The notes: generated from the sequence alone by a model not told the origin. A DNA stretch of 64,000 nucleotides from an uncultured bacterium (GCA_965368975.1 CBDUPA010000011.1:184155-248154), one strand, 5' to 3'; shown: positions 11,110 through 27,433, counted from the stretch's first letter. Numbers and translations are program-made.

Positions 11110-13749
11110 GTGTCGACCAAGCTTCGCGCCCTGCTCGTTGTCTACTTGCTGCTGCTGGGGGCGTCGCACGTGGTGCGGTTGCTGTTCCCGCAGCCCGGAC
11201 CCGAACGGCCGCCGATCCAGCTCCCCGGGCACGCGGTTCTGCAAGCCGCTGCCGTCGACGACACCGATCTGCTGCCCCGCAAGCAGGTACGTCTGGCCTA
11301 CCGCTACTGGCGTGCGGAGGAGGCCTCGCCTGCAGCCGATATCGACGCCAGCGCCGAGCGTCCTACCGTCCTGCTGATCCACGGCAGTCCAGGCGGCGCC
11401 AGTAACTTCGATGGCATGGTGCCCGACCTGCGGCGTCGCTACGATGTCCTGGTGCCGGACCTGCCCGGCTTCGGTGACTCGCAGCTCGACATTCCGGACT
11501 ACTCCTTCCGCGCGCATGCGCGCTACTGCCTGCAGCTGCTCGATGACCTCGGCATCGAGCAGGTCCATGCCGTCGGTTTCAGCATGGGCGGTGGGGTGGT
11601 CCTGGAGCTGGCCGAGCAGCGTCCCGACGCTATCGCCTCTCTGACCCTCTTGGCCGCTATCGGGGTGCAGGAGATGGAGCTGCTGGGCAACTACCAGCTC
11701 AACCACGTCGTGCATGGGCTGCAAGTCGGTTTTCTCTGGCTCTTGGGCGAGGGAGTGCCGCACTTTGGTGCCTGGGATGGTGCCTTTTTCGGCATCCCCT
11801 ACGCTCGCAACTTCTACGACAGCGACCAGCGTCCGCTACGAGGCTACTTGCAGCGCTACGACAGACCGATGCTGATCGTGCACGGCCAGGACGACATGCT
11901 GGTGCCGGTCGGGGCAGCGATCGAGCACGCACGCCTGGTGCCGCAGAGCGAGCTGCAGCTGCTCGACCGCAATCACTTCTTCGTCTTCTCGGAAGGGCCG
12001 CGGCTGGCTGCTACCTTCGAAGCCTTCTTCCAGCGTGTTGATGCCAGCGACGTCGCCACCCGTGCCACTGCAGCACCCGAACGGATCGCGCGAGCCACCG
12101 CACCCTTTCGTCCCGAAGACCTTCCGCCGCTCGACGGTTTCGCACTGGTCATGCTGCTCTTCGTCATCGCTGTTTCCACCCTGGTCAGCGAAGACCTCAC
12201 CTGCATCGCCACTGGCCTGCTCGTCGCCGCCGGCCGTATCTCCTTCCTGCCCGGCACCCTGGCCTGCCTGGTCGGCATCTTCGTCGGAGATATGTTGCTC
12301 TATGCCGCCGGCCGCTTCATTGGGCGCCCTGCCCTCCTCCGTGCTCCCCTGAAATGGATGCTGCGTCCAGCCGATGTCGAACGCAGCTCCAAGTGGTTCG
12401 AGGAGAAAGGCCCCACCGTCATCATCCTCAGCCGCTTCGTGCCCGGCACCCGCTTGCCTACCTACTTCGCCGCCGGCCTCTTCCGTACGCACGCCCTGCG
12501 CTTCGTCTTCTACTTCCTGCTCGCTTGCATCGCCTGGACACCGGTGCTGGTGGGTCTAGCCATGTGGTTGGGAGCAGAGATGTGGCACTACTTCGAGCTC
12601 TTCGAAGACTACGTCTGGGTCGCGGGGGTGGGCTTGGTGCTGTTGATCCTGATCGGTACTCGCATCCTGCTCCCCGCCGCCACCTGGCGCGGTCGCCGCC
12701 TGCTGCGCGGGTCGCTGCGTCGCAAACTGCGCTGGGAGTACTGGCCACCCTGGGTTTTCTACCCACCGCTGGTTCTCTGGATCCTCTGGCTCGGTATGCG
12801 CTTCCGTGGCTTCACCCTGTTTACCGCCGCCAATCCGGGCATTCCGGCCGGCGGAGGGATGGTCGGTGAGTCCAAGTCACAGATCATGCAGGGCCTGTGC
12901 GGCGGCGTTGAGCAACCGCAACCTCCGGAGCTGGCCCGCTTCGACGTACTGCAAGCCACGGCATCGACAGATGCCCGCGTCGAGCAGTTGGAGGCCTTCC
13001 TACAGCGGATCGATTCCGTTTACCCTGTCGTCCTCAAGCCGGACACCGGTGAGCGGGGTGCCGGCGTCCAGGTGGTGGCGTCGCGGCAGCAGGCCTCCGA
13101 GTATCTCGAAGCTGAGCCTGATCCGGTCATCGTTCAGGAGTACATCCCCGGCCGCGAGTTCGGTGTCTTCTACATGCGTCTACCGCAAGAAGAGAGGGGC
13201 TTCGTCTTCTCGATCACCGACAAACGCCTACCGTCCATCGTCGGCGATGGGGAACGCACCGTCGAGGAGCTGATCCTGGCCGATAAGGATCTTCTGGCCA
13301 TGGCGCGCTACTACCTACGCGTCCAGGAAGCACGCGTCGACGAGGTGTTGCCGGCCGGCGAGGAGCTGACCCTGGTACAACTCGGTACCCACTGCCGCGG
13401 CGCCGTCTTTCTAAGAGGAAGCCACCTGATCACCCCGGACCTAGAAACCGCCATCGACCGTGTCAGTCAGCGCTTCGAAGGCTTCTACTTCGGGCGCTAC
13501 GATGTGCGCACTCCGTCGGAGGAAGACTTGCGTCAGGGGCGCTTCAGAGTCCTGGAACTGAACGGCATCACGTCGGAGTCGACGGACATCTACGATCCGC
13601 AGAACTCGCTGTGGGAAGCGTACCTAGTGCTGTTCCGGCAGTGGCGGTATGCCTTCGAGATCGGGCGGCAGAACCGGGATGCGGGGGAGCAGGTGATGTC
13701 GTTGGGGGCGTTCTTGGGAATGGTGGGGCGGCACTTTCTGAGCCGGTAG
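11110..13749 (+). CDS. Fusion of alpha/beta hydrolase, DedA/VTT membrane domain and ATP-grasp-like domain
   Basis: HGSPG and GFSMGG nucleophile elbow; SEDLT..G, SRFVPGTR (DedA); YPVVLKPD.GERG.GV, QEYIPG, GRYDVR, LELNG (ATP-grasp). Confidence 0.85.
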   Translation: MSTKLRALLVVYLLLLGASHVVRLLFPQPGPERPPIQLPGHAVLQAAAVDDTDLLPRKQVRLAYRYWRAEEASPAADIDASAERPTVLLIHGSPGGASNFDGMVPDLRRRYDVLVPDLPGFGDSQLDIPDYSFRAHARYCLQLLDDLGIEQVHAVGFSMGGGVVLELAEQRPDAIASLTLLAAIGVQEMELLGNYQLNHVVHGLQVGFLWLLGEGVPHFGAWDGAFFGIPYARNFYDSDQRPLRGYLQRYDRPMLIVHGQDDMLVPVGAAIEHARLVPQSELQLLDRNHFFVFSEGPRLAATFEAFFQRVDASDVATRATAAPERIARATAPFRPEDLPPLDGFALVMLLFVIAVSTLVSEDLTCIATGLLVAAGRISFLPGTLACLVGIFVGDMLLYAAGRFIGRPALLRAPLKWMLRPADVERSSKWFEEKGPTVIILSRFVPGTRLPTYFAAGLFRTHALRFVFYFLLACIAWTPVLVGLAMWLGAEMWHYFELFEDYVWVAGVGLVLLILIGTRILLPAATWRGRRLLRGSLRRKLRWEYWPPWVFYPPLVLWILWLGMRFRGFTLFTAANPGIPAGGGMVGESKSQIMQGLCGGVEQPQPPELARFDVLQATASTDARVEQLEAFLQRIDSVYPVVLKPDTGERGAGVQVVASRQQASEYLEAEPDPVIVQEYIPGREFGVFYMRLPQEERGFVFSITDKRLPSIVGDGERTVEELILADKDLLAMARYYLRVQEARVDEVLPAGEELTLVQLGTHCRGAVFLRGSHLITPDLETAIDRVSQRFEGFYFGRYDVRTPSEEDLRQGRFRVLELNGITSESTDIYDPQNSLWEAYLVLFRQWRYAFEIGRQNRDAGEQVMSLGAFLGMVGRHFLSR

Positions 13750-13835
13750 TGTCACGAAAGACGCGGGCCACAGCACTCCTAGGATGGTGCGGCGGCGCTC
13801 TGCTCGTGCCAATTTATGCAGCATAGGAGGAATCA

Positions 13836-14024
13836 ATGATTCGGCGAAGTCGCAAGAAGCGCTTGAAGCTGCACCGGGAGATGCTCGGCTCTTTGGTGGA
13901 ACAAGAGCTAGGCCAGGCGAAGGGTGGAAGTACCGTGCTTTGTACCCAAAGCGGTTCCTCCCAGGCCATCGAATCTTGTCCAGCCCTATTCTCGGGCTGT
14001 TGTCCCATTGCTGAGGGGCGTTAA
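13836..14024 (+). CDS. Peptide precursor P1 (62 aa), double-glycine leader and Cys-rich core
   Basis: RBS AGGAGG; MIRRSRKKRLKLHREMLGSLVEQELGQAKGG|STVLCTQSGSSQAIESCPALFSGCCPIAEGR. Confidence 0.8.
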   Translation: MIRRSRKKRLKLHREMLGSLVEQELGQAKGGSTVLCTQSGSSQAIESCPALFSGCCPIAEGR

Positions 14025-14070
14025 ATGCAAAAAAATCGTATTTATGCGCAATTACGGAAGGAAGTCGTAG

Positions 14071-14241
14071 ATGAAGCGCAAAGTAACCGAAAAGCGCACT
14101 TTGAGGTTGGTTCGTGAGACCCTCAAGGCACTCGAGAGCGCTGACTTGCCCAAGGTGCGTGGCGCTTACCACAGCTCACAGTTGTCTATCCCTACCATCG
14201 ACGACGGTGACTCTTGTACTTGCTTCAGTCTGGGTATTTGA
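14071..14241 (+). CDS. Peptide precursor P2 (56 aa), not in ORF track
   Basis: RBS GGAAGGAAG; manual translation MKRKVTEKRTLRLVRETLKALESADLPKVRGA|YHSSQLSIPTIDDGDSCTCFSLGI*. Confidence 0.8.
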   Translation: MKRKVTEKRTLRLVRETLKALESADLPKVRGAYHSSQLSIPTIDDGDSCTCFSLGI

Positions 14242-14276
14242 AACCTGTTACGCACTATGCCCGAAGGCCGGCCGAC

Positions 14277-14405
14277 TCACCGCCAGTCTCCATGGACCTG
14301 GAACGCTGCCCAAAGCAAACTGCGTCCGCGACGCTTCCCCAGCGGTACCACGCAGCAACTCAAATTTGTGCCTGGCGTAGGGCCGTGGCCCTGGGCAGTC
14401 CTGCT
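14277..14405 (-). pseudogene. Decayed duplicate of the 3' end of CHAT protease 2
   Basis: tcaccgccagtctccatggacctggaacgctgcccaaagcaaactgcgtccgcgacgcttccccagcg..ccacgcagcaactc..tgtgcctg closely matches 18373-18500, with substitutions and indels. Confidence 0.85.
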
Positions 14406-14461
14406 GTCCCCAAGAGACGCAAACGCAAGCGATGCCTGCCCCGTTTCTGTCCATAGCCTTA

Positions 14462-14739
14462 GAGGCCGGGGAGTATCTGGCCGCCAAGCCCGGTCCGATC
14501 ATTGCTCAGGAGTACGTCTCCGGCCGCGATTCCTGGAACTGAACGCCACTACGTCCGAGTTGGCGGACATCCACCATCCGCAGAATTCGCAGTGGGAAGC
14601 GTACCGAGTGCTCTTCCGCCAGTGGCGGGTTGCCTTTGAGATTGTGTGGCAGAATCGGGAAATGGGCGTCGAGGTGATGTCCTGGGAGCGCCCCTGAAGA
14701 TGGTGGCGCTGTACTTTCTGGGGCGGCAGTGTCACGAAA
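14462..14739 (+). pseudogene. Decayed, internally deleted duplicate of the 3' part of the hydrolase-DedA-ATP-grasp gene
   Basis: Matches about 13091-13158 joined to about 13549-13759 (LELNATTSELADIHHPQNSQWEAYRVLFRQWR versus LELNGITSESTDIYDPQNSLWEAYLVLFRQWR), including the downstream agtgtcacgaaa. Confidence 0.88.
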
Positions 14740-14826
14740 TGTCGAATTTCCGCACTCCTCGGTTGAGCGAGCTTTGCACTTCGTGCCGGAGCGCAACTTC
14801 TATTGCTTCGCGGTTCTGGAGGAGCT

Positions 14827-14986
14827 ATGCGCAACCTGAAACGGCTTGAGCAGCGTCTTCACCTGAGCAAGGAAACCTTGAAAAGGCTAGAAGCCCCCGA
14901 TCTCCAGTTGGCTGTAGGTGGCAGTGTCAACAAATAGTGGTGCTTGGGTTTCCTGCCCCTCGTGTCCCACTTCTGCCTTGATGTGA
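14827..14986 (+). pseudogene. Peptide precursor P3: intact leader, core interrupted by TAG at 14935-14937, probably from a one-base insertion
   Basis: RBS GGAGGAG; MRNLKRLEQRLHLSKETLKRLEAPDLQLAVGG|SVNK*; removing one A in CAAATAG gives core SVNNSGAWVSCPSCPTSALM* ending at 14986. Confidence 0.7.
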
Positions 14987-15072
14987 AGTGAAGAAATTGA
15001 GGTGCTCCCGGCTTCTACAGTGCCGGTATCTTGGGCAACAAATGGCTGCCATCAACGAATAGGAAGTGAATC

Positions 15073-15240
15073 ATGAAAAAGAACAAGTTCAGCGAAAAAC
15101 TCGTGTTGCACCGTGACACGCTAGTTCAACTAGAGAATGGGAGACTAGTTACGGCCGTGAAAGGCGGGGGAGAAGAGTCGACAATAACAAGGAGCGCTGG
15201 CACTATGTCGTGTACGTCTGTTTGTATTGGTGCTATTTAG
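15073..15240 (+). CDS. Peptide precursor P4 (55 aa), not in ORF track
   Basis: RBS AGGAAG; MKKNKFSEKLVLHRDTLVQLENGRLVTAVKGG|GEESTITRSAGTMSCTSVCIGAI*. Confidence 0.8.
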   Translation: MKKNKFSEKLVLHRDTLVQLENGRLVTAVKGGGEESTITRSAGTMSCTSVCIGAI

Positions 15241-15268
15241 CTCGCGCTGGCGTGGCGAATATTCCTTT

Positions 15269-18241
15269 TTAAGCGTAGTTTCCGTAAAACAGAAATGCTC
15301 CCCATGCATAGGGGGCAGAGAGTTCTGGATCCCCGCTGCCTATCATCTCGATCTGTACCTGTTGGAGAGCAAGGATCGGCGGTGTTCCCGAAGCGAGTTT
15401 TTTATAAAACCTTGTCATTATTACGGCCGTCGATCTGTCAGCAATCGGCCATAAGGAACCGATCACTGCGCGGGCACCCACTACCTGAAACGCTAGAGCT
15501 AGACTGAGGGGCCCGTCGCCTCGCATTTCTCTGCCTAGAGCACTTTCGCAAGATGACAGCACAACAAGGTCTGTTCCTTGCAGACGGGTCTCGCTGAGAA
15601 TCTCCCTCATCTCAAGAATGCCGTTATCTTTGCCAACTTCGACTTGCTCGGGTAGTGAGAGTAAGAGCGCTGGATGCAGTGGCCATTGTGAATCCGATAA
15701 CGTGTGAGTTGCAAAATGCAGATACCGAGTTCGAAGGGTACCCTTGGCACGCTCTTCGATGGCGTCAGGTCCAAAGAAAATGCGACTTCTAGAACCGAAG
15801 AGCGCTCCGACCTGTTCGACTTCTGCCTGACTAAATGGCAGTTGGCGCAGCTTGAAGCCGCGATTCAGGGCGGCAAATACTTGCCCGTTGTCCATTAGCT
15901 GACCGTCGGCGGACTCAAGATGGATGGGAAACGACGGATTGCCGAATGCCGTAAACTCTACCGGTGGTAACTCTGATGAGCTTCTTGATCTCAGCTCTGA
16001 ATAGGACGATCCAGACAGGCCGAAGAAAAGGGCAACTTTCTCGATCAGGTAGTGGTCGTCAGTGCGTAGAGTGGACCAAGGCAGGGAATGCAAAGCTCCG
16101 TCAGGGAGGATCAGCAGTCTTTCGAAATCGCTTAGTGAGTGCCGCAACGCGGGTGGAAAGAGAGCGATGAAGAGGTCTCGACCAACGACGCGAAGTCTGT
16201 CGAGTTTCTGTTGCCACTGCGGATGTTGCGGGTGCGCGCTGAGTATGAGAGATCGTATTTGTTGAACTTTTCTCTGTACTTCGCCTTGGTTGATTGGCAG
16301 TGAATAGGTTGCCAGTTCCTGTCTGTTGCCGAGAGTAAAGACGAAGGACTCTTGCTCCGCAACGAAGAATGAAACCAAGAGCGTCTCTTGGTCGAGGGAA
16401 CTCTGCATATCGCTGACTTGCTTGCCTTGATCTTGGGCACTGCTACGGGGGCTGAGTTGTAAGGGCCGTACAGTGAACTGGCGAAGAAGTTTCTCGTAAT
16501 CAAGCTTTGCCTGGAATAGCTCATCCCTGAGAGACTGTTCTTGCTGCCCTTGGTTCTGAGTTCTACCGACTAGGAGTTCGAATCGAAGCGAGTTCAGTTG
16601 CTCTTCCAACTTGAGTTTCAGGTGCTGAACAGTGGCAGGAACATCCATTAGCTCCTTTGAAGCTTCATGCTCTGCTCGCATGATTCGGAAGCCCTGGGCT
16701 CTAGATCGCTCCAAAGTCTCAAATGCTTTGGTTGGCTGCCCTCCCCGAATAAGGGCTAGAACCAGATGCTGATAATAGTCATGGTGCCATGAACGATAGT
16801 CGACCCTCGATTGCGCCAGATGAGAGATCTGATGCTCTAGTGTGTTAACTGCATCTTGTAGCCATCTCAAGCTAGCGGTAGGGTTTCCGCCGTTGGCCTC
16901 TAGGAGTCCTCGATCTCTTTGAAACTCTGCTAGCCACAAGGTTTCTGAGGCTAGCTCCTGCACGATCTCAATGCCACGATCAGAGGCTTTCCGGGCTTCG
17001 GTAAGTTCTCCAGATTCCCACAAAATCTTGGCGAGCTGATTTTCCGTCTCGGCGGTCCAATACGAGTTTCGACTTTCCTGAAGTCGGATCTCGCGAGCCT
17101 GAAGAATCAGGGCTCTTGCCATCTCCAAGTTACCTTGAGCTTGATGCAGTCGAGCCAGTAAGACGAGTGTGTTAGCAATACGCGGTGATTCTGTTGTACC
17201 TTCCGACCTTCTACTTAGAGCCAGTGATGCAGTCGCAAGGCGGATACCTTCTTCGATAGTGTTGGTTAATAGACAGATTCTAGCGGAGCGCATTAGTAGC
17301 TCGGCTGTTCGGTGGCTTTCTGGGTGGTGTTGCTGCAGGATCCTTAGTGCAGTTGTGTAGTGTGACGAAGCTGAAACCGGCCTTCTTCGCCATTCGTCCA
17401 ATTTTCCTAGTTGCCGGAAAGTCTCTGCAAGTAAGACTGGACGGGCGTTGCCCGCTTGAAAGTTACGAAGAGCCCTCTGAAGCCAATACTCGGCTCGGTC
17501 GTGCTCTGCTTGCATGCGAGCAGTGACGCCCAGTTGAAGGTAAGTACCTCCGAGTAGATAACTCTTCGGTGCCCTAGTCTCAAGGATGTCTTGCGCATAT
17601 TCTAGATATGTCTGTGACTCTTCTAATGCGAGTTCTTGTCCCAAGATGAGTCCCAGGCAGCCGAGGGTGTAAGCTTTCTCAACGCTATCTACTTTGACCT
17701 GTTGAATGGACTGTAGTGCGCGCCGGCAGAGAGCTTCACCTTGATTCCAGTCTTCCTGCAGGAAGAGGATGATACCAAGTCGAAAGTATGCTCTTGATCT
17801 TAGTCTTGGTTCTTCTTGCCTCTCAGAGAGCAGCACAGCTTGCTCGTAGTACCAGCGTGCACCTGTGAAGTCATCGCGATCTTCTGCTAGGTTGCCGAGG
17901 GCAATTTGTACTTCCGCCTTCTCTGATGGGTAGACGGTCCAGTTTAGAGTCGTGCGAAGTACCCGCTCGGCCAGTTGATATTCACTTTCTGCATTCGTCC
18001 ATTCTTCAGGGTGCAGTATTTCCTGTGCTTGGTTCCACAATGCTTGAGCCAGCGGTAGGCTAAAACTGGCTCGCGTATAGAGTGGAGACAGCTCCTGCCA
18101 AGGCACTACAGCTTCTGCTCCTTGTGCTGCTGTGAATCCCTGTGATGTTCCTCGCTTCAGCAATAACGACAAAAAGAGGAGACAGATCAAGCCCAGGTCA
18201 GGGAACCTTGGGTGCTTGGACATCATGCAGGGCTGCTTCAT
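15269..18241 (-). CDS. TPR-repeat plus CHAT-domain (caspase-like) protease 1
   Basis: Multiple TPR-like helices; AFETLERSRAQ linker; LLILPDGALHSLPW, YLHFATH, LVVLSSCESALG, SLWPIAD, PYAWGAF; N-terminal hydrophobic stretch; visibly lower GC than the flanks. Confidence 0.92.
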   Translation of the reverse strand: MKQPCMMSKHPRFPDLGLICLLFLSLLLKRGTSQGFTAAQGAEAVVPWQELSPLYTRASFSLPLAQALWNQAQEILHPEEWTNAESEYQLAERVLRTTLNWTVYPSEKAEVQIALGNLAEDRDDFTGARWYYEQAVLLSERQEEPRLRSRAYFRLGIILFLQEDWNQGEALCRRALQSIQQVKVDSVEKAYTLGCLGLILGQELALEESQTYLEYAQDILETRAPKSYLLGGTYLQLGVTARMQAEHDRAEYWLQRALRNFQAGNARPVLLAETFRQLGKLDEWRRRPVSASSHYTTALRILQQHHPESHRTAELLMRSARICLLTNTIEEGIRLATASLALSRRSEGTTESPRIANTLVLLARLHQAQGNLEMARALILQAREIRLQESRNSYWTAETENQLAKILWESGELTEARKASDRGIEIVQELASETLWLAEFQRDRGLLEANGGNPTASLRWLQDAVNTLEHQISHLAQSRVDYRSWHHDYYQHLVLALIRGGQPTKAFETLERSRAQGFRIMRAEHEASKELMDVPATVQHLKLKLEEQLNSLRFELLVGRTQNQGQQEQSLRDELFQAKLDYEKLLRQFTVRPLQLSPRSSAQDQGKQVSDMQSSLDQETLLVSFFVAEQESFVFTLGNRQELATYSLPINQGEVQRKVQQIRSLILSAHPQHPQWQQKLDRLRVVGRDLFIALFPPALRHSLSDFERLLILPDGALHSLPWSTLRTDDHYLIEKVALFFGLSGSSYSELRSRSSSELPPVEFTAFGNPSFPIHLESADGQLMDNGQVFAALNRGFKLRQLPFSQAEVEQVGALFGSRSRIFFGPDAIEERAKGTLRTRYLHFATHTLSDSQWPLHPALLLSLPEQVEVGKDNGILEMREILSETRLQGTDLVVLSSCESALGREMRGDGPLSLALAFQVVGARAVIGSLWPIADRSTAVIMTRFYKKLASGTPPILALQQVQIEMIGSGDPELSAPYAWGAFLFYGNYA

Positions 18242-18372
18242 TCGTTTCCTAAACCGACACCGCTAGTCGTCGTAACCTGAAGCGACACGCCAGTGTGCCT
18301 TTCATTCCTAGAGATGGGCTAGGGCCGGGCGTGAGCAGTTGGCGATAGTCGACGTGTTCAGACGGTGTCAGC

Positions 18373-21351
18373 TCACCGCCAGTCCCCATAAACCTGAAAG
18401 GCAGCCCAAGCAAACGGCGTCCGCGACGCTTCCCCAGCGTCGCCACGCAGCAACTCGATCTGTGCCTGACGCAGAGCCTCGGCCTTGGGCAGCCCTGCGT
18501 CCAGGTGCTGGTAGAAGCGCCGCATCAGTTCTGCCGTCGAGTCGTCCTGCACGTTCCACAGGGATGCAACGACCGAGCGCGCGCCGGCGATGTGGAAGGC
18601 TCGTGTGAGCCCCATCATGCCTTCGCCGCTCAGCTCCTTGCCGAGGGCAGACTTACAGGACGACAGCACCACTAACTCGGTGCTCTTGAGCTGGATGCCC
18701 TCGAGGATTTCCCATACCTCCAGCAGGCCGTTCTCCTGCCCATCCTCTAACTGCTCCGGAATGCTCAGTGCCAGGGCAGAGTGCAGGGGCATGCGGGAAT
18801 CGACGATGGCGTGCGTGGCGAAGTGGAGATAGCGTGCCTGTGTCGTCAGTTTGGCTTGCTCCTCGGTCGCTGCTGCACCGAGGTAGGCACGCGAGCGGCT
18901 GCCGAAGAGGCGGGAGATGCCTTCCACTTCCAGCTCACTGTAGGGCAACAGCTGCAGCGCGAAGCTGCGCTCGACCACGGAGCGCAGCTGAGGGTTGCGG
19001 AGGCTGTTGCTGTCGGTATCCATGAGCCGTTGTGGATACTCAGGACCACCGAAAGCGGCCAGCATGACGGGAGTCGCTGTTGGACGATGGCGGTTCTTCA
19101 GCTGCGCGTAGGCGGAGGCGGACGGGGCGATGTGGAGCTGCTTGTCTTGGATCAGGAAGTGATCTTCCGAGGACTGCAGAGCTGACCAGGGGAGCTCGTG
19201 CAGCTGACCGTCGGGCACGATCAGGATGCGCCGCGCGGTATCGATACGTGGCTGCAGTGGCCCGAGCAGGGCTTGATAGAGACGCAAAGCTTCCGGGCCC
19301 AGATTGCGCAGGGCCTGCTGCTGTCGTGGCATGCTTGTGCGGGCCTCGGAAATCTGCTTGTGGAAGGCGTCGACTCGATCTTCTATCTCCTCGGAACCTA
19401 TCTCGAGGGTGTGGACGTCGAGACCTTCGTCTCGGCTGACGGAGAAGACGAGGGTTTTGTGCGTCAGCGTGCTGAAGGAGATCAGCAGAGTGCCTGGGTC
19501 CAGAGAGTGGCGCACCGCGGTCAGGTCGAGCACGGGAGCCTGAGTATCCAGGATGGTCTGCTGCCGGTGTTCTCGAACCCGCCGCTGAAAGCTCTCGTAC
19601 TCGAGCAGGGCGTCGACCGTCTCGTCTTCGTAGTGTGCGATGGCGTCCGTGTCGTTGCGCCGCTTGGCGTCCAGCAGGTCGTACTGGATCCGGTCGCGGT
19701 ACTGCTGTAGCTCTTCCTTGCGTGCGTGTAGCGCGGGTGGCAGCCTGTCGCCGGAGACGGCTGCATGCTCGGCGACAATGGCCCGGAAGCTCTGTGCGAG
19801 CGAACGTTCGAGCGTCAGGAAAGCGCTCTCCTGCGCACCGAGTTCGAGCTGTGTCTCCAAGATGTGGTGGTAGACACTGTGGAACTCGGAGCGGAAGCCA
19901 GCCTGGATCTGGCGAGAGCCCCCCAGTTCGGCGGTCTGGATCTCCAGCATGTCCGCGGCTTCCTGCAGCCATTGCAGGCTGACTAGGGGCCGGCCGGCTT
20001 TGGCTTCCAACAGACCGCGTTCGGAGAGACCTTCGATCAACCAGAAGCTCGTGCGCCTGTCGCGGCGATAGTGGGCGAGTGCCTGATCCGAAGCTTGGCG
20101 GGCTGCCTCGAAGTTTCCAAGGTCCGCCTGCACGCGGGCAATGGCCCCTTGGGTGTACCCGATCCAGAAGTCGTCTGCATGCTCCCGCAGGACCTCCAGC
20201 GCCAAGCTGTACTCGGCGAGCGCGTCCCGCGGCTGCCCCTTCTGCTCGTAGTAGTTGCCGAGCAGGGCTCGGCTGTTGGCCGTCGCTCCGAGATCCCCGT
20301 CGACCCTGACCTGCTCCTCGCGCAGGCGCAGAGCTGCCTGTGCTTGCTGATGCCCCGTTTCGAAGTCGCCACTCTCTAGAGCCATCTTGCCGAGTCGTTC
20401 GTGCAAGGCTGCCAGTTGCGCCGTGCCCGCACGAGCCTGTTGATAGCTTTTCAGGGCTTGTTGAAAGTAGTCCGTTGCACTGTCGAAGTCACGCGCCCAA
20501 TGTGCGTTTTTGCCGCGCTGAACCAGCGCGAAGGCACGATCCGGCAAGGGGGCCTGGTTGTCTTCGAAGATCTCGAGAGCACGTTCCAAGAGACGGTCCG
20601 CGGTCTCGTAGGCACGCTGCATGCGGTAGACGACACCCAGCTGAATGTAGGAATGGGCCAGTGCTCTGCCGTCGCCCAGGCGTTGCTGAAGCTTGATTGC
20701 GGACTCCAGCAGTGCCCGCGCCTCCTCGAGTTCGGGCTTCTGACCGAGAATCAACCCAAGGCAGTTCAGCGTTTCCGCCTCCTCGAGGCCGCCGGCTGGT
20801 TGCAGCGTCCGCTGGGTGGCCAGTGCCCTGCGACACAGGAGTTCTCCTTCCTGCCACTTGCCGACCGCGAAGCGGACTGATCCCTGGCGGGCCCAGGCCT
20901 GGGCCAGCAGCCACGGATCGTCAGCGTCATTGAGGAGGCTCACCGCAGTGTCGTAGTGGTCAGCTGCGGGACCGAAGCGCCGGTTCTTCTGCTGAACTCG
21001 CCCGAGTGTGAGGTGGAGGAGGGCCCGGGTCTGGGGAGCACTGCTATAGCGGAGAGCGGCCAACAGCGCCTGTTCTACCGCTGGATCCGCAGTGCCCGGA
21101 GGCAAGGTCTCGAGCTGCTCGGCATGCTGCCAGAGAGCTGCGGCGATCCGCGAATCAAAACGGCTGTCCGGTTGGGAGGCTGCCGTAATGGAGCTGGTAG
21201 AAACATTTGGTATTGTGCATGCGTCAAATTGCCTGCTCGCCAAGCCAGAGGCCAGGAGCAGTGCTGTCGAAAGGAGGGTCCAAACCGTAAGGCGTCTGGC
21301 AATCTGAAAGGAGTTTGCAATGCGCAAGCGAAGTTCCCGTTCTAAGTCCAA
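18373..21351 (-). CDS. TPR-repeat plus CHAT-domain (caspase-like) protease 2 (start uncertain: TTG at 21351 or 21327)
   Basis: TPR array; ILIVPDGQLHELPW, YLHFATH, LVVLSSCKSALG, GLTRAF..AGARSVVASLWNVQD, PFAWAAFQVYGDWR; paralog of protease 1. Confidence 0.92.
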   Translation of the reverse strand: MDLERELRLRIANSFQIARRLTVWTLLSTALLLASGLASRQFDACTIPNVSTSSITAASQPDSRFDSRIAAALWQHAEQLETLPPGTADPAVEQALLAALRYSSAPQTRALLHLTLGRVQQKNRRFGPAADHYDTAVSLLNDADDPWLLAQAWARQGSVRFAVGKWQEGELLCRRALATQRTLQPAGGLEEAETLNCLGLILGQKPELEEARALLESAIKLQQRLGDGRALAHSYIQLGVVYRMQRAYETADRLLERALEIFEDNQAPLPDRAFALVQRGKNAHWARDFDSATDYFQQALKSYQQARAGTAQLAALHERLGKMALESGDFETGHQQAQAALRLREEQVRVDGDLGATANSRALLGNYYEQKGQPRDALAEYSLALEVLREHADDFWIGYTQGAIARVQADLGNFEAARQASDQALAHYRRDRRTSFWLIEGLSERGLLEAKAGRPLVSLQWLQEAADMLEIQTAELGGSRQIQAGFRSEFHSVYHHILETQLELGAQESAFLTLERSLAQSFRAIVAEHAAVSGDRLPPALHARKEELQQYRDRIQYDLLDAKRRNDTDAIAHYEDETVDALLEYESFQRRVREHRQQTILDTQAPVLDLTAVRHSLDPGTLLISFSTLTHKTLVFSVSRDEGLDVHTLEIGSEEIEDRVDAFHKQISEARTSMPRQQQALRNLGPEALRLYQALLGPLQPRIDTARRILIVPDGQLHELPWSALQSSEDHFLIQDKQLHIAPSASAYAQLKNRHRPTATPVMLAAFGGPEYPQRLMDTDSNSLRNPQLRSVVERSFALQLLPYSELEVEGISRLFGSRSRAYLGAAATEEQAKLTTQARYLHFATHAIVDSRMPLHSALALSIPEQLEDGQENGLLEVWEILEGIQLKSTELVVLSSCKSALGKELSGEGMMGLTRAFHIAGARSVVASLWNVQDDSTAELMRRFYQHLDAGLPKAEALRQAQIELLRGDAGEASRTPFAWAAFQVYGDWR

Positions 21352-21496
21352 GTTACAACTCCATCGAGAATGGCTGACGCTTCTAGACGCTCAGCAGCTG
21401 ACTGCGGCTACGGCTGCAGCTACGCAGGATCCGTCTTCCACGGCGATCTTTTCCTGTCCGCAATGTGGGATGAATACATTTCCCATCGACGTCTAA
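21320..21496 (+). CDS. Peptide precursor P5 (58 aa), not in ORF track
   Basis: RBS AAAGGAG; MRKRSSRSKSKLQLHREWLTLLDAQQLTAATAA|ATQDPSSTAIFSCPQCGMNTFPIDV*. Confidence 0.75.
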   Translation: MRKRSSRSKSKLQLHREWLTLLDAQQLTAATAAATQDPSSTAIFSCPQCGMNTFPIDV

Positions 21497-21625
21497 TCGG
21501 TGCGTCGGCCGCTGGTTTTCGTGTTCGGGCCAGTGGCTGCCTTACAAGTAGACGCGCAATCTGGGGCAGGAAGTGTCAGACAAGGAGCACAAACATATGG
21601 ATGCATGTATCCAAGAGGTGTCACA

Positions 21626-21790
21626 ATGCGAAGATTCACGAAGAAGCGCTATTCGATTCGACTGCACCGAGAGACCTTGGTGCGGCTCGAGGACGCTCAC
21701 CTGAAGCAGGTTGCCGCGGCAAGTATCAAGGCATCGTGTCCGCTGACCGACACGGGAGCCCCTGCGGTCAGCCCGGGGAGCTGCTGCTAG
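21626..21790 (+). CDS. Peptide precursor P6 (54 aa)
   Basis: RBS AAGAGGTG; MRRFTKKRYSIRLHRETLVRLEDAHLKQVAAA|SIKASCPLTDTGAPAVSPGSCC* (3' part of track ORF 21500-21790). Confidence 0.8.
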   Translation: MRRFTKKRYSIRLHRETLVRLEDAHLKQVAAASIKASCPLTDTGAPAVSPGSCC

Positions 21791-21952
21791 AAACAAAAAA
21801 AGCGTCCTTGTGGACGCTGGGGAGCAGAAGTACCTTGTTGTCCGACCCTTCTGAGTCGCGGAGCACCACGTGAGTGGCGGCTCTGTACTTAGACGCGCAA
21901 GCAGCGCGGAAAAGTGTCAAACGCGGCGCAGAAATTTTTCGAGGTCGGCACT

Positions 21953-24589
21953 TTAGCGTTCCTGTTCCGGGCTCTGGGGCTCCAGCTTCTGTAAGCGCTG
22001 CCAGGCTCTTCGAGTCTTGGGAGCGTCGGGCCCCAGAGCCTGGAGCAGGCTTTCGTAGCCTTGTCGGAGCAACAGGGTCGCGGCTTCGGTGTCGCCCAGC
22101 GCCAGCAAACAAGCTCCCAGGACGCTATCGACTTCCGCCAATGACACCTGAGGGTGTTTGTAGACCTCTTCCAGGGTCTGCCTGGCCAGCCGCGCTTGCT
22201 GTAGGGCCTCGTCCAATCTTCCTTGCGCGAGCAAGATTTCGGCATAGTTGCGCAGGAATGCGCCAAGGTTCGGTCTGCCGATTCTCTGTTGGGACCGCTG
22301 AATCCGCAGAGCCTCCTCGAGGTGAGCCTGCGCACCGGCCAGATCCTGTCTCAGGAAGAGGACGTAGCCCAAGTTGTTGTGTGCGGGGGCCAGTTTCCTA
22401 TGGAGCGGTTGCTTCTCGTAGACCTTCTGTCGCAGTTCGAGGCTCCTTCGCAGTTCTTCCTCTGCCGCTGCCAGCCGTCCCTGGTATTGCAGGATCCGAC
22501 CTAGATTGCTGTGCGTCGTGGCAAGCGCCGTCGGGGAAACCTGGAGGTCGATTCTCGTCTCGAGCGCTTTGCGGCCCAGGGCCTCGGCCTCCTCGAGCTG
22601 GCCGAGTTCGAGGAGCAAGGTAGAGAGGTTGTGCCGAACAGTCGCGATGAACTCGGCATCCACGTCGGCTTCTGCGAGTCCGAATTCTAGGGCTTTGCGA
22701 AAATTGACTTCAGCCTTGCTCGGCGGCCCAATACGGCGGCGGATACCGCCGAGGTGGTTGAAGGCTTCGGCGAACTGCGCGCGACTTCCGTGATGCTTCT
22801 CGAGCAGTTCGATGGCTTCGAGGATGTACGGTTCGCCGGCTTTGTGGTCACCGAAGTAACTCAGGTTGCCTCCCAGGTTGAGCAGCGTTTCGGCCAGCTG
22901 GTGCGGCTGGTCCAGCTGACGTCCCAGGTTGACGGCCTCGCGGTAGAGAGGCAGGACTTCTTCGGCGCCCCGGCCCAGGTCTTTGAGAAGTCTGCCAACT
23001 TCGTCGAGCAGGTGAACGCGGATCTCCGGGTCCTCGCCCAGCATTTCTGGGAGTTCGTCCAGGACCTGCTGGATCAGCTCACCGACGGTGAGTCCTGGGT
23101 CGCCGGTGTCCGGGCTGGCGCCTTCAAGGATCCGCGTGGTGATGTTCAGGGCGCCCCTGGCGACCCGCTGTTCCGTTTGCGCTTGCACGGCAGCCTTGCG
23201 GGCTCGCTGTCGCAAGACTTCCGCGTAGACGCTGAAGCTGGTGAGCAGGAAGATGAAGGTTGCCGCTGCGGCCACAGCCAGGGCGTTTCTGCGCACAAAC
23301 TTCCAGGCTCTGTAGATGGGCGTGCTCTGGTGCGCCCTGACCGGCAGGCCTTGGAGGTAGTTCTGCACATCCTCGCTCAGCTGCTCGACGGAGGCGTAGC
23401 GCCGGACGGGCTTCTTCTCTAGCGCCATGAGCACGATGCTGTCGAGATCGCCACTCAGCCGCCGCCGCAGGCTGGGGGCGTCGAGGTCACGGCTGGTGCT
23501 GACCGACGCGGGATCGAGATGCAGCACCGAGCCGTCCGCACGCTCGCGTGTCTCGTCACGATCGATCGCCTGGCTCGGAGGTTCCGGTTCCTCGTTGCAC
23601 AGGCGCTCGAGCTTGGCGGGCAGAGACGTGGTGGGACGGTGTGGACGGTGTCCGGAGAGCAGCTCGTAGAGCAAGACGCCAAGGGCGTAGACATCGCTCG
23701 CCGTGGTCACCGCCTCACCCCGCAGCTGTTCGGGACTGGCGTAGTCGAGGGTCAGGGGGGCGGGACCGCCGGTATGCAGAGCGGTCGGAGCCATGGTCCG
23801 GTCGGGTACGTCGCCGGCCAGCAACTTGGCGACCCCGAAGTCGAGGAGTTTCGGTTCGCCCTCGGCCGTGATCAGGATATTGCTCGGCTTGAGGTCGCGG
23901 TGCAGAACCAGGCTCTGGTGGAAAAAGTGAACGGCGGAGCAGATCTTGCGGAACAGGTGCAGCCGCTGCGTGATGCTCAGACGGTGGCGGTCGCAGTACT
24001 GGTCTATCGGTTCGCCCTCGATATGTTCCATGACCAGGTAGGGACGGCCGTCCTCGGTGCTGCCACCGTCGAGCAGGCGGGCGATGTTCGGGTGGTTGAG
24101 CTGGGCCAGGATCCGCCGCTCCTGCTGGAAACGCAGCACGGTCTGTTGGGCGCTGGCGCCGTGCAGGAGCTTCAGGGCTCCCTTCTGTATGAAATCCTCA
24201 TGGATCCGCTCGGCGAGGTAGACCGTCCCCATTCCCCCGCGCCCCAATTCGTGTAGGACGCGCCAGCCCGCGACTTGGGTTCCGGAGGCCAGTTCCGGCA
24301 CCAGGGCGCCTCCCTCGAGGCTCACCTCCCCGCGAGGCGCGCCGGCGACCGCCGGCTGTTCCAAGAACTCGCCCATGTCACCGTGGGAAGCGACCAGCGA
24401 CGAGACTTCACGGAACAGGTCTTCATCTTCGGCGCAGGCGCTGCGCAGCCAGCCGAGCCGTTGGTTGGTGTCGACATCGAGCGCTCGGTTGAGTAGGTCC
24501 TCAATGTGCAGCCAGCGTTCCGGCGTCATCGGGGTCGAACCGGTTCCAGCGTCTGGTGTGGGAGCTGGATTGTCGCATTCCGGGGGCAT
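21953..24589 (-). CDS. Hanks-type Ser/Thr protein kinase with transmembrane helix and C-terminal TPR array
   Basis: LGRGGMGTVY, ALKLL, HRDLKPSNIL, DFG, YASPEQ, DVYALG; TM segment ALAVAAAATFIFLL; TPR motifs (HNLS, HSNLG, HNNLG). Confidence 0.95.
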   Translation of the reverse strand: MPPECDNPAPTPDAGTGSTPMTPERWLHIEDLLNRALDVDTNQRLGWLRSACAEDEDLFREVSSLVASHGDMGEFLEQPAVAGAPRGEVSLEGGALVPELASGTQVAGWRVLHELGRGGMGTVYLAERIHEDFIQKGALKLLHGASAQQTVLRFQQERRILAQLNHPNIARLLDGGSTEDGRPYLVMEHIEGEPIDQYCDRHRLSITQRLHLFRKICSAVHFFHQSLVLHRDLKPSNILITAEGEPKLLDFGVAKLLAGDVPDRTMAPTALHTGGPAPLTLDYASPEQLRGEAVTTASDVYALGVLLYELLSGHRPHRPTTSLPAKLERLCNEEPEPPSQAIDRDETRERADGSVLHLDPASVSTSRDLDAPSLRRRLSGDLDSIVLMALEKKPVRRYASVEQLSEDVQNYLQGLPVRAHQSTPIYRAWKFVRRNALAVAAAATFIFLLTSFSVYAEVLRQRARKAAVQAQTEQRVARGALNITTRILEGASPDTGDPGLTVGELIQQVLDELPEMLGEDPEIRVHLLDEVGRLLKDLGRGAEEVLPLYREAVNLGRQLDQPHQLAETLLNLGGNLSYFGDHKAGEPYILEAIELLEKHHGSRAQFAEAFNHLGGIRRRIGPPSKAEVNFRKALEFGLAEADVDAEFIATVRHNLSTLLLELGQLEEAEALGRKALETRIDLQVSPTALATTHSNLGRILQYQGRLAAAEEELRRSLELRQKVYEKQPLHRKLAPAHNNLGYVLFLRQDLAGAQAHLEEALRIQRSQQRIGRPNLGAFLRNYAEILLAQGRLDEALQQARLARQTLEEVYKHPQVSLAEVDSVLGACLLALGDTEAATLLLRQGYESLLQALGPDAPKTRRAWQRLQKLEPQSPEQER

Positions 24590-24601
24590 CGCGGAGCCTC
24601 C

Positions 24602-25234
24602 TCAGGACGGCTGCAGCGCACGGTGCAGCCAGCTCTTGGCTGCCCGCCACTTGTAGCGGACGGTCGAGGTGGAGATATTCAGTACGGTAGCGATCTCGTC
24701 ATGGGTGAGGCCGGCGAAAAAACGCATCTCGACGATTCGACTGCCTTCGGGGTTGAAGCGTGCTAGGTCTTCGAGCGCGACGTCGAGGCGCAGTAGCTCG
24801 TGGTCGCTCATCTCGGCTTGCAGCAAGACGCCATCGTCAGCCAAGGCGTCCAGCGAAATCGGCACGTTGTCACCGCCGCGCTTGACGGCGGTGCGCCGGC
24901 GTGCGTGGTCGACCAGGATGCGCCGCATCTGCCGTGCCGCAAAGCCGAAGAATTGGGCACGGTCATGCCACTGTACGCGGCGCCGGTTCATCAGGTCGAG
25001 GAAGAGCTCGTTGACCACCGCAGTCGGTTGCAGGGTATGGCTCTGGTTCTCGCGCACGAAGTACCCACGCGCGATCCGCTGCAGCTGGTCGTAAACCAGT
25101 GGCGTCAACCGCTCCAGGGCGTCGGGTTTGCCGTCGCTCCAGGCGTGTAGCAGGACGGTGATGTCCCCGCGTGGCGAACTGCCGGTTCTTTCCGGTGTGG
25201 CGTCGCGGGATGGAGCTGGGGTGTCGTCGTCCAT
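24602..25234 (-). CDS. ECF sigma factor, kinase-associated type (TIGR02999/ECF43-like)
   Basis: DITVLLHAWSDG, LVYDQL, HTLQPTAVVNE, QMRRILVDHAR, IVEMRFFAGLT..EIA; directly upstream of the kinase. Confidence 0.92.
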   Translation of the reverse strand: MDDDTPAPSRDATPERTGSSPRGDITVLLHAWSDGKPDALERLTPLVYDQLQRIARGYFVRENQSHTLQPTAVVNELFLDLMNRRRVQWHDRAQFFGFAARQMRRILVDHARRRTAVKRGGDNVPISLDALADDGVLLQAEMSDHELLRLDVALEDLARFNPEGSRIVEMRFFAGLTHDEIATVLNISTSTVRYKWRAAKSWLHRALQPS

Positions 25235-25237
25235 AGG

Positions 25238-27433
25238 CTACTCCGTGGAGGGGGCGATCAGCTCGAGGTCGTAGGTGGCGGTGCGCGTGGCGTCGCGTAA
25301 TCGAAAGACCTGCAACTCGAGGCGGGTCCCCGGTTCGACGCCAGTGAGTCTGAAGAGGATCTCTGCATGCCCGTCCGATACCGCGTGCAACCGCTCCTGG
25401 CGTTTGTGCTTTGCGTCAACCAGGTCGATGCGATAGGGCTCGCTAGCTTCTTCGACCTTGATGCTCAGAGTCAGTTCGCCCTGACGGACTACGACCGGGA
25501 ACGTGTCATCGAGACTCCTGGTCACTGAAGGCAACGGTAAGTCCGTGCGCTCGAGACCGTATATGGCCATGGCATCGCCGGTGCTCTGGAGCCACCGATG
25601 GCGCAGCTCTCCGAGCTGGTTGTGCTGCCCGATCACCGTGCTCAGCAGGCCGAGGCTGACGGTGAGTAGCACGGCTGCAGCCCAGGCCAGGCGTTGTTGC
25701 CAGGCGCGCGAGCCTTGCGCGGCCGTTTTGCTCGGTGCGGGGAACGGATGGACCGTTGCCGAAGCGCCGACCGCTCGCTCGAGCGCGGCACGGGCTGGCA
25801 GCACGGCGTCGGAAAGCCAGAAGTCAACTTCTGGGTCCGCGTTCGGGACGTCTTCATTGCCGTGGCTCCTGCTGGCCCGCCAACACGCCCGCACGCGCTC
25901 GAGGTGAGCGGGCTCGAGCGTAGCGTAGCGATGTTCAGCCGACAGCGCCTGGGAAGGCACCTGGAGCGCCAGGCCGCAGCGCAGTGTCATCGGGCCGCCT
26001 TCGGAGGCGGGGATGTCGACGTCAGCCGAAGTGAACAAGGGCGCATCGTCAACGGGTACCAGCCACAGAGTCTCCACACCTGCCTCTTCAGCGTGCAGCA
26101 CCAGCCAGTCGACACCGAGGGTGGCCGTCTCGGGGCGTCGTAAGAGGTCGCCGGTCTCCAGTGGGCGCGCAGCCCCCTCTTGGGCATCCCCCTCAGCCAG
26201 AAAGCGCTGGTGTCGAAGGATCGCAGCCCTGTTGAGGTGAGCACTGAGGCTTGCGAGCTTCGTTTCGTCGTCGACCATCGTCGAGCCTTTCTGAGCGGCC
26301 TCGTCGGGAGGTTCGGGTGCCGTGGTCGCTTCGCCACTTTCTTGACACAGGCGGCTGAACTCTCGCAGCTGATCGTACAGGGCTCCCATGGAGTTGCGCG
26401 GAATCCCCAGCTGTTCCGCCAGCGCGCGGCGCGACGGTACCTTCCGCGTCTCTGGATGGCTCGCGTACAGGCTCAGGAACTGCCAGAGCCTCTCTAGGTG
26501 TTCACGCACTTTGGGCTTCAAGTCGGCAGCCGCCAGGTGCTGGTCGACGCAGCGCAGCAGGAACGCGAAGCTTTCACGCTCGGCCAGCGAAGTGTCGGGT
26601 TGCACGCGCCGGACCAGGCGCAGGAGGCCGGGTTCTTCACCCTCCTCGAAGGCGCTCTCGCCCTGCTCGGTGTCGAAGAGAGCGCCCCAACGGTGGCGAA
26701 CGTCCAGCTTGATCGGCTCTATCAGGTCGCGGAAGCGGAACAATGCGACGTGCTGTTGGGGAAGCTGCTGGAACAGGCCGCGAGCCGTTTCCTGCAGTTC
26801 GACCAGGCCACGGCCTTGTGCCGTCAGCAAGTCCGGCAGTAGCTGGTCGTTCCAGGCCGGCACGAGTTCGGTAAGGCGCGCGCGAATCTCTGCCTCTTCT
26901 GCTTCGGTGGGGCCGTCGATCGCAGGGTCGAAACCCACCAGCGTGATGTTGCGCAGGCGCTCGTCACCATCGAGCACGAAGAGTCGACCGGTGTTGATCA
27001 GCTCCAGCGCCGCCTTGCGCAACACACTGAAGACGCGGAAGCCGAGAGGGTCGTGCTTCTTCTGGGTGTCGTGCACGAAGTTGCGCACGTTGCGCCGCAC
27101 CAGGCCTTCCACATTGGCTCCGGCCTGCAACTGGCGCACGAGGTAGGCATAGCGGTCCAAGAAGATGTACCGGAAGCACTCGGCGACCAGTTCCCAGGCC
27201 TCGCTGCGGAAGATGTCCGGAGGTTGCGTCGCTTGCGACCACGAGGAAACCCCGTACACCCCTAAGTATCCCGGTTGCCGGAGCCACAAGCCGCGCCGCC
27301 GGAGCTCCGCTTGGATCAGACGCCAAAGCGCAGTCAGGACAGCCTCGACCCGCTGGTCCGGTGGAGGTTCGTTCGAAACGGCCAAGGCCTCTAAGTAGTC
27401 GGTGAAGTGTCCTTCGCCGGAACCGCGATACAT
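25238..27433 (-). CDS. Hypothetical 731-aa protein: helical N-terminal region with HTH, central domain, one TM helix and a C-terminal beta-rich domain
   Basis: Long ORF ending 3 nt before the ECF start; HTH-like PSRRALAEQLGIPRNSMGALYDQLR; TM LAWAAAVLLTVSLGLL. Confidence 0.7.
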   Translation of the reverse strand: MYRGSGEGHFTDYLEALAVSNEPPPDQRVEAVLTALWRLIQAELRRRGLWLRQPGYLGVYGVSSWSQATQPPDIFRSEAWELVAECFRYIFLDRYAYLVRQLQAGANVEGLVRRNVRNFVHDTQKKHDPLGFRVFSVLRKAALELINTGRLFVLDGDERLRNITLVGFDPAIDGPTEAEEAEIRARLTELVPAWNDQLLPDLLTAQGRGLVELQETARGLFQQLPQQHVALFRFRDLIEPIKLDVRHRWGALFDTEQGESAFEEGEEPGLLRLVRRVQPDTSLAERESFAFLLRCVDQHLAAADLKPKVREHLERLWQFLSLYASHPETRKVPSRRALAEQLGIPRNSMGALYDQLREFSRLCQESGEATTAPEPPDEAAQKGSTMVDDETKLASLSAHLNRAAILRHQRFLAEGDAQEGAARPLETGDLLRRPETATLGVDWLVLHAEEAGVETLWLVPVDDAPLFTSADVDIPASEGGPMTLRCGLALQVPSQALSAEHRYATLEPAHLERVRACWRASRSHGNEDVPNADPEVDFWLSDAVLPARAALERAVGASATVHPFPAPSKTAAQGSRAWQQRLAWAAAVLLTVSLGLLSTVIGQHNQLGELRHRWLQSTGDAMAIYGLERTDLPLPSVTRSLDDTFPVVVRQGELTLSIKVEEASEPYRIDLVDAKHKRQERLHAVSDGHAEILFRLTGVEPGTRLELQVFRLRDATRTATYDLELIAPSTE

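Follow-up and report, generated by a model that had tools for sequence, protein, structure and literature searches.

Two described groups of lanthipeptide precursors offer the closest comparison for the peptides analyzed here. Walker et al. 2020 (PMC7268733), in the available text of that paper, describe an LxLxKx5L motif in the class I precursors (LanAs) of Bacteroidetes, many of them with a Gly-Gly leader end and with a C39 protease encoded in the cluster. The prochlorosins, processed by ProcM, are class II lanthipeptides of marine picocyanobacteria for which the accessible portions of PMC7268733 and PMC12328550 give dozens of precursors, many encoded far from the synthetase, and a C39-type protease. 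Here we examine a 64,000-nt stretch of DNA (the window) on contig C11 of the 7.13-Mb genome of an uncultured bacterium (G000; window at GCA_965368975.1 CBDUPA010000011.1:184155–248154), in which six short plus-strand open reading frames (ORFs) lie among genes for two TPR-CHAT proteases, a kinase-TPR protein, and an extracytoplasmic function (ECF) sigma factor. A preliminary description of the window had considered both a sensory module formed by the peptides with these neighbors and orphan precursors of a ribosomally synthesized peptide with post-translational modifications (RiPP) matured in trans. We think it probable that the six ORFs, five of them intact and one frameshifted, are orphan precursors of class I lanthipeptide type that belong to a 51-copy family and are matured in trans, as a dispersed library resembling that of the prochlorosins.

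All six peptides align across one common leader, with a basic N terminus followed by L-x-L-x-[RK]-[ED]-x-L-x-x-L, and an SD-like (Shine–Dalgarno) motif stands 5′ of each ATG, in agreement with the earlier report of six small plus-strand genes sharing this leader, each with its own ribosome-binding site. The LxLxKx5L motif is present in 6/6, and the leader ends in GG (peptides 1, 3, and 4), GA (peptide 2), or AA (peptides 5 and 6). Peptide 1 (13836–14024, 62 amino acids) has GGAGG 5′ of its start and four Cys in its core; peptide 2 (14071–14241, 56 amino acids) has a C-terminal SCTC..G.I core; peptides 4 (15073–15240, 55 amino acids) and 5 (21320–21496, 58 amino acids) have two core Cys each; and peptide 6 (21626–21790, 54 amino acids) has three. 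Against a hidden Markov model (HMM) of their own family, the six score 38.5 to 41.8 bits (peptide 1, 41.5; peptide 2, 39.1; peptide 4, 38.8; peptide 5, 41.8; peptide 6, 41.3). A Ser/Thr/Cys-rich variable core had been claimed for every member. This holds for the five intact ORFs, whose cores of 21 to 31 residues contain Cys and Ser/Thr, but not for peptide 3 (14827–14986). Three-frame translation of 14900–15075 places a stop four residues past the GG of the leader ORF (14827–14937), and a Cys/Ser/Thr-rich core resumes in another frame (14918–14986); because of this early stop and displaced core, we classify peptide 3 as a frameshifted pseudogene.

We compared the leader with described leader models. 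The NCBIfam model NF038153 (lant_leader_L1a, class I lanthipeptide) matches five of the six window peptides at 12.1 to 19.4 bits, all under its cut-off of 22. Genome-wide, the model matches 45 places at E ≤ 10, and 16 of these exceed the cut-off; the window peptides are tied to their paralogues through their own family HMM. An NCBIfam scan (E ≤ 1) gave no Nif11 or NHLP match for any of the six. Positions −12 and −15 form part of the double-glycine leader pattern. Across 48 aligned family copies, the leader ends in GG in 26 and in GA in 14; position −4 is A, V, or I in 47/48, position −7 is L, I, M, or V in 45/48, position −12 is hydrophobic in 47/48, and position −15 is L or I in 47/48. Judged by their residues, these positions fit the double-glycine recognition pattern, in which the available text of PMC12328550 gives −4 and −7 a role. 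The likeness that had been noted to LxLxKET-type class I leaders and to double-glycine leaders is borne out by the motif described in the accessible part of PMC7268733 and by the −4/−7/−12/−15 pattern, and the NF038153 matches, though under the cut-off, point the same way.

The six window peptides are a small part of a large family. We built an HMM from their leaders and iterated it over the genome's 65,796 small ORFs (E ≤ 0.01). It matched 51 ORFs, and none among the same ORFs reversed. These 51 copies, six of them in the window, occupy 36 loci on 21 contigs. Met-Lys/Arg stands at model position 1 in 51/51, and an SD-like 4-mer lies at −18 to −4 in 51/51, compared with 11% of random 15-mers. 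The invariant leader residues are encoded by three to five synonymous codons (five for Leu; for Glu, GAA 24 and GAG 22 times), and the constraint is therefore on the protein. The cores are hypervariable, with at least one Cys and at least one Ser/Thr in 50/51, all but the frameshifted peptide 3; Cys makes up 11.8% of core residues compared with 1.1% in the long ORFs of the genome, and Ser/Thr 19.6% compared with 10.5%. A crude k-mer search of the 200 bp upstream of the 51 genes for a shared promoter returned Shine–Dalgarno motifs alone. The many precursors, constant leader of double-glycine type, hypervariable cores, and scattered genes of a dispersed library are thus present, as they are in the prochlorosins to the extent that these are covered in the portions of the sources cited above. 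The family differs from the prochlorosins in having LanB and LanC in place of a single LanM, in having an LxLxKx5L leader and not a Nif11 leader, and in being known from genes alone. With the precursors of Walker et al. it shares the leader motif, the GG-type leader end, cores with Cys and Ser/Thr, paralogues beside LanB and LanC, and C39 in the genome. It differs from them in that the window copies, and 33/36 loci overall, lie far from LanB, LanC, and C39; in that the host, according to the preliminary description, is not a member of the Bacteroidetes; and in its 51 copies per genome, far above the example of 10 distinct precursors in one class I cluster found in the available text of PMC7268733.

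A genome-wide search for trans-acting Lan enzymes and C39 transporters, which the preliminary description had suggested, found both. A locus on contig C13 (45–52 kb) contains the one full-length LanB of the genome (1159 amino acids, with N and C domains), two precursors, and two LanC genes, and is a canonical class I cluster. At two more loci, a solitary LanC gene stands near a family member, at distances of 205 and 260 bp, so that LanC is within 260 bp of the family at 3/36 loci (0.4 expected within 5 kb, p 0.0085). Because these solitary LanC genes stand beside precursors, some LanC-linked precursors in this genome must use a LanB from another locus. The genome also has three C39-ABC_membrane-ABC_tran genes, all away from the window, with HlyD partners and in one case an outer-membrane factor (OEP) as well; the 11 to 12 kb fetched around each of these three contained no family member, and a C39 domain was found within 10 kb of 0/36 family loci.

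Comparison with related genomes extends this association. Among 41 genomes of the order, with the family counted at E ≤ 1e-4, eight contain it (51, 27, 24, 16, 6, 3, 1, and 1 copies), G011, G030, and G039 with 16 to 27 copies each. All eight have a strong LanB (355–589 bits), while a LanB above 250 bits occurs in just three of the 33 family-less genomes (G009, G025, and G021). This suggests that the family and LanB co-occur across genomes, with the qualification that the genomes are related rather than independent and that the comparison involves no formal test. The family lies directly beside LanC or LanB in five of the eight family-bearing genomes and about 2 kb from LanB in G010 and G038; G011 and G039 each have a single LanB, to which no family member is linked. 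We also counted neighbors at the 72 peptide loci of five other family-bearing genomes, since a leader-HMM search with a comparison of enrichment beside Lan and CHAT genes had been proposed. LanC lay within 1 kb of 7/72 loci, where about 0.2 was expected from genome fractions, and a CHAT domain lay within 5 kb of 3/72 loci, where about 3.5 were expected.

Two of the related genomes show contrasting arrangements of these genes. In G039, the LanB, both LanC genes, and 18 peptides are all mutually unlinked (on different contigs or far apart), which looks like a putative class I lanthipeptide pathway that is fully unclustered. At G007:C7:23915–28991, six tandem family precursors lie beside LanC and LanB as a conventional multi-precursor class I cluster. 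Within G000 itself, C22:89168–91078 and C41:7097–8920 each have kinase and LanC domains in one open frame (class III/IV-like), and at C18:2723–3760 a LanC domain lies in an 1191-amino acid frame (LanM-like); other lanthipeptide classes are therefore also encoded in this genome. At C9:118735–128334 there are several LanB-like open frames, one of 1698 amino acids with repeated N-domain matches, and no family peptide near; these may belong to a different RiPP system or to a peptide-aminoacyl-tRNA ligase system.

Maturation in trans, the alternative that the preliminary description had also allowed, is the reading favored by the LanC adjacency of paralogues, by LanB co-occurrence, and by the C39 exporters encoded elsewhere, and the pathway that we propose would have three steps. 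Each gene would be translated from its own ribosome-binding site into a precursor of 54 to 62 amino acids. The leader of about 31 amino acids would then recruit class I enzymes from another contig, the C13 LanB and LanC cyclases, plus the solitary LanCs; Ser and Thr would be dehydrated and Cys added to them, giving (methyl)lanthionine rings in the hypervariable core. We propose this second step because paralogues are adjacent to LanC and the family co-occurs with LanB. Finally, because of the canonical hydrophobic pattern at −4, −7, −12, and −15, one of the three C39-ABC exporters would be expected to cut after GG or GA and export the product. If trans maturation is correct, the prochlorosin system has a class I counterpart in G000 and in at least three other genomes of the order (G011, G030, and G039), where tens of hypervariable precursors, unlinked to one another, would share a single LanB and a few LanCs. 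Such LanB/LanC pairs would have unusually broad substrate tolerance, a property sought for peptide engineering, and mining that is based on clusters, with a few genes taken around LanC as in the available text of PMC7268733, would miss nearly all such peptides. We found no description of a dispersed class I precursor family, or of a link between CHAT proteins and RiPP precursors, in a literature search whose coverage was incomplete and did not include supplementary tables.

The observations that weigh against orphan precursors matured in trans fall into two sets, the first of which concerns the peptides themselves. The window has no LanB, LanC, or C39, so that maturation of its six copies is extrapolated from elsewhere. 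None was found among the 46 larger window ORFs by Pfam scan, no LanB or C39 place of the genome falls in the window's part of C11, and the sole LanC-like place on C11 is a weak partial match (24.1 bits, C11:154508–154654) outside the window; on this point the preliminary description had been correct. All six peptides stay under the NF038153 cut-off of 22 bits; the highest score is the 19.4 bits of peptide 4, and for peptide 2 there is no match at all. The leaders of peptides 5 and 6 end in AA, not GG or GA, and may be poor C39 sites. Kinship among the genomes inflates the weight of the LanB co-occurrence. Finally, a search of sequencing runs listed no RNA run and one DNA run, with a 0.05 share of sampled words.

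Several of these points would also fit peptides that C39 exports as double-glycine peptides without lanthionine, either unmodified (disulfide-rich and bacteriocin-like) or modified by an unrecognized enzyme. The canonical double-glycine pattern and the three complete C39-ABC/HlyD systems would serve such peptides, the window peptides fall under the NF038153 cut-off, the single LanB of G039 and of G011 is unlinked to the family, and proximity to LanB or LanC is absent at 33/36 loci of G000, window copies included. We nevertheless regard this explanation as unlikely. It leaves unexplained why the family stands beside LanC or LanB in five of eight genomes and about 2 kb from LanB in G010 and G038, why family and strong LanB are found together in 8/8, and why the cores are enriched in Ser/Thr as well as in Cys; the three C39 loci, where the fetched sequence held no family member, also speak against it.

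The second set of observations concerns the genes around the peptides. TPR-CHAT protein 1 (15269–18241, minus strand, 990 amino acids) has a CHAT domain (8e-62) and TPR, and TPR-CHAT protein 2 (18373–21351, minus strand) is a 992-amino acid open frame (CHAT 6e-75) whose true start is probably downstream of its TTG. Their CHAT domains exceed the cut-off of 24 bits, at 209.7 and 252.8, the dyad H846/C898 is invariant in 13 sequences, and the two proteins are 36.5% identical over 941 amino acids; TPR-CHAT protein 1 is very divergent, its best scored relatives being about 30% identical. Further along on the same strand are the kinase-TPR gene (21953–24589, 878 amino acids, Pkinase 6e-40 and TPR, one transmembrane segment) and a sigma gene of TIGR02999/PF07638 type (24602–25234, 187.2 bits, cut-off 126.15), which lies 13 bp from the end of the kinase gene. 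The domain assignments that had been given to these neighbors are thus borne out. Csx29 of type III-E CRISPR is an example of a TPR-CHAT protease (PF12770). The window proteins resemble such proteases in that a CHAT domain, its His/Cys dyad conserved, comes after a TPR array. They differ in scoring weakly against the Csx29 model (24 bits, cut-off 300), in that no CRISPR context was seen, and in their signal-peptide-like N termini. The sigma and kinase genes resemble the ECF43-type pairs of sigma factor and Ser/Thr kinase, for the regulation of which we refer to the available text of PMC7826278, in that a TIGR02999/PF07638 sigma lies 13 bp from a transmembrane Hanks-type kinase; the window pair has no tie to the peptides beyond its position.

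These neighbors allow a second explanation, which the preliminary description had proposed as a module for the reception or processing of peptides. Once exported, with or without modification, the peptides would be recognized by the extracytoplasmic TPR domains of the neighboring CHAT proteases and kinase, as cognate ligands, inhibitors, or substrates, and the kinase would phosphorylate the ECF sigma factor. The topology is consistent with this. A crude hydropathy scan gave signal-peptide-like N termini for both CHAT proteins and a hydrophobic window at about residues 435 to 460 of the kinase-TPR protein, between the kinase and TPR domains. The TPR parts of all three proteins are accordingly predicted to be extracytoplasmic, on the side of the membrane where the peptides would arrive after export. 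The His/Cys dyad of the CHAT proteins is intact, the peptides are immediately adjacent to these genes in the window, and ECF-kinase signaling is an established mode, as described in the available text of PMC7826278 (see also PMC13147305). A complex prediction of TPR-CHAT protein 1 (residues 60–990, 13-row alignment) with peptide 4 returned a score of practically nil and a mark of about one third, and it counts neither way.

To see whether this adjacency recurs, we compared the 36 loci of G000 with random positions in the genome, which has 23 CHAT, 31 PF07638 sigma, and 90 Pkinase places. A CHAT domain lies within 10 kb of 7/36 loci (2.0 expected, p 0.003), and a CHAT open frame lies within 5 kb of 4/36 (1.0 expected, p 0.015); this mild enrichment is a further point in favor of the sensory module. 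Within 500 bp, a CHAT open frame is found at 2/36 loci (0.13 expected, p 0.007), but both are the window's own and belong to one 8-kb block, and 29/36 loci have no CHAT domain within 10 kb. An ECF sigma factor lies within 10 kb of 5/36 loci (1.8 expected, p 0.037), a weak association, and kinases within 5 kb are at chance (6/36, 4.1 expected, p 0.23). In the five other genomes, as given above, CHAT proximity is at the expected level. The proposed module thus shows no recurrent co-location in either those genomes or G000, and this part of the preliminary description is not upheld.

The annotated neighborhoods give a similar picture. Pfam annotation of neighbors covered 19 of the 34 non-window loci and three ORFs of a 20th, and the rest were assessed by coordinate proximity. 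Among the 19, LanC or LanB was present at three, CHAT at two, and kinase-TPR at two, and 12 had unrelated contexts (Rho, a solute-binding protein, patatin, S9 peptidases, LuxC/E, ClpB/TIR, ABC transporters, a nonribosomal peptide synthetase, and others). At the other 34 peptide loci, paralogues of window proteins comprised the kinase in six and the ECF sigma factor in two and nothing else, and at E < 1e-6 there were no homologues of the window CHAT proteins, p731, or p392. In the five other genomes, three loci lie within 5 kb of a CHAT domain. One of them, on G039:C132 (50000–65000), counts against our preferred interpretation: a family peptide lies directly 5′ of, and co-directional with, a 1162-amino acid TPR-CHAT gene, which is followed by a gene for a 405-amino acid sigma-70 r2 protein. 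This is the sole co-directional peptide-CHAT pair that we saw; at the other two loci, the peptide is the second neighbor of the CHAT gene. At L013 (C7:150600–164971), which belongs with the same adverse observations, CHAT, 711-amino acid, sigma-70 r2 (213 amino acids), and 471-amino acid genes lie on one strand, and a peptide converges on the end of this string; the string has no homology to the window block at E < 1e-6.

The size of the families involved also argues against the sensory module. CHAT expansions exist without the peptides: five genomes sampled from the same family hold 21 to 37 CHAT candidates apiece and no family peptide, and 12/33 peptide-less genomes have strong CHAT matches. 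In G000, a kinase is found within 3 kb of 19/21 strong PF07638 sigmas, a sign that the repertoire for sigma/kinase signaling is very large, and the sigma-kinase pair of the window is one of about 19 such pairs. The window peptides are not co-transcribed with the large genes, because they either converge on them or diverge from them. Each pair had been described as converging on the 3′ end of a TPR-bearing gene. This is accurate for peptide 6, which faces the 3′ end of the kinase gene 163 bp off, but the start of peptide 5 falls within the outermost 5′ part of the CHAT2 open frame, and the two genes diverge. We therefore take the TPR-CHAT, kinase-TPR, and ECF neighbors to be ordinary members of large paralogous families, for which functional coupling to the peptides is not indicated. 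The sensory module strikes us as an unlikely account of the locus as a whole. An occasional functional tie would fit the CHAT excess in G000, the L013 string, and the locus on G039:C132, but its prospect is similarly slight. The two ideas could be combined: matured, exported lanthipeptides might double as signals that are read by the cognate extracytoplasmic TPR domains of neighboring kinases and CHAT proteases and that control ECF sigmas. We hold this to be distinctly improbable; if it were true, it would add a peptide-pheromone layer to the sigma/kinase network, one that diversifies by duplication of peptide-sensor blocks, that of the window being an example.

How the window came to hold three peptide pairs bears on all of these readings. 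Peptides 1 and 5 are 45.6% identical over 57 amino acids, and peptides 2 and 6 are 46.7% identical over 45; in both cases the second is one of the nearest paralogues of the first. Pair 1 is followed by a frameshifted CHAT2-like remnant (14280–14404, minus strand) of about 125 to 134 bp, which corresponds to the last ~41 codons, is recovered by tblastn as pieces in three frames, and is 83.6% identical in DNA over 134 bp to 18372–18502; it had been counted among the TPR-bearing genes, but it has no TPR part. Pair 2 is preceded by a 213-bp direct repeat (14528–14739, plus strand) of the 3′ end of an 879-amino acid gene (79.8% identity over 213 bp to 13547–13759), and this gene itself lies 5′ of pair 1. 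The repeat marks a segmental duplication that carried peptide pair 2. The three pairs are thus local copies of one two-gene unit, and their apparent triple coincidence with large genes is one event multiplied, a further point against the sensory module. The lesson is that local duplication within large paralogous families can produce a striking adjacency in a single window.

The 879-amino acid gene (11110–13749), a fusion of alpha/beta hydrolase, VTT/DedA membrane, and ATP-grasp domains, is found at E ≤ 1e-30 in 15/21 genomes searched, G000 included, and at 46 to 58% identity in 14/20 relatives. In 7/7 relatives examined, no CHAT, kinase, ECF, or family peptide gene lies 3′ of the orthologue, and the segment at 13.8–25.2 kb is therefore a lineage-specific, duplication-prone insertion. 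GC content is 0.51 to 0.54 at 14001–18000 (peptides 2–4 and TPR-CHAT protein 1), compared with 0.58 to 0.68 elsewhere in the window; this difference suggests that the stretch either was acquired recently or turns over fast.

Such a history raises the question of whether the window copies are decaying duplication relics without function. Peptide 3 is frameshifted, the CHAT remnant and the duplicated gene end lie between the pairs, and an exact look-up in the public protein collection returned called proteins for just two of the six sequences (peptide 2 among them), both nameless. Yet 5/6 retain the ATG, the SD-like motif, the full leader, and a Cys-bearing core, and the pairs have diverged under constraint, because paralogous members are only about 46% identical and have kept the leader motif. 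We therefore find a relic origin very improbable. What remains of interest is the family as a dispersed library of about 50 hypervariable precursors, apparently reliant on enzymes of class I and resembling the prochlorosins in architecture, not in enzymology.

Two further genes of the window were considered as context. The 879-amino acid gene, with its ATP-grasp domain, was entertained as a maturase of graspetide type and rejected, since family-less genomes carry the gene and seven orthologous loci are without a family peptide. The 731-amino acid protein (25238–27433, minus strand), which has no Pfam family, is encoded by the gene that opens the string of sigma and kinase genes; in G006, a homologue with 30% identity is located some 2.5 kb away from the orthologue of the 879-amino acid gene, and the two may be ancestral neighbors.

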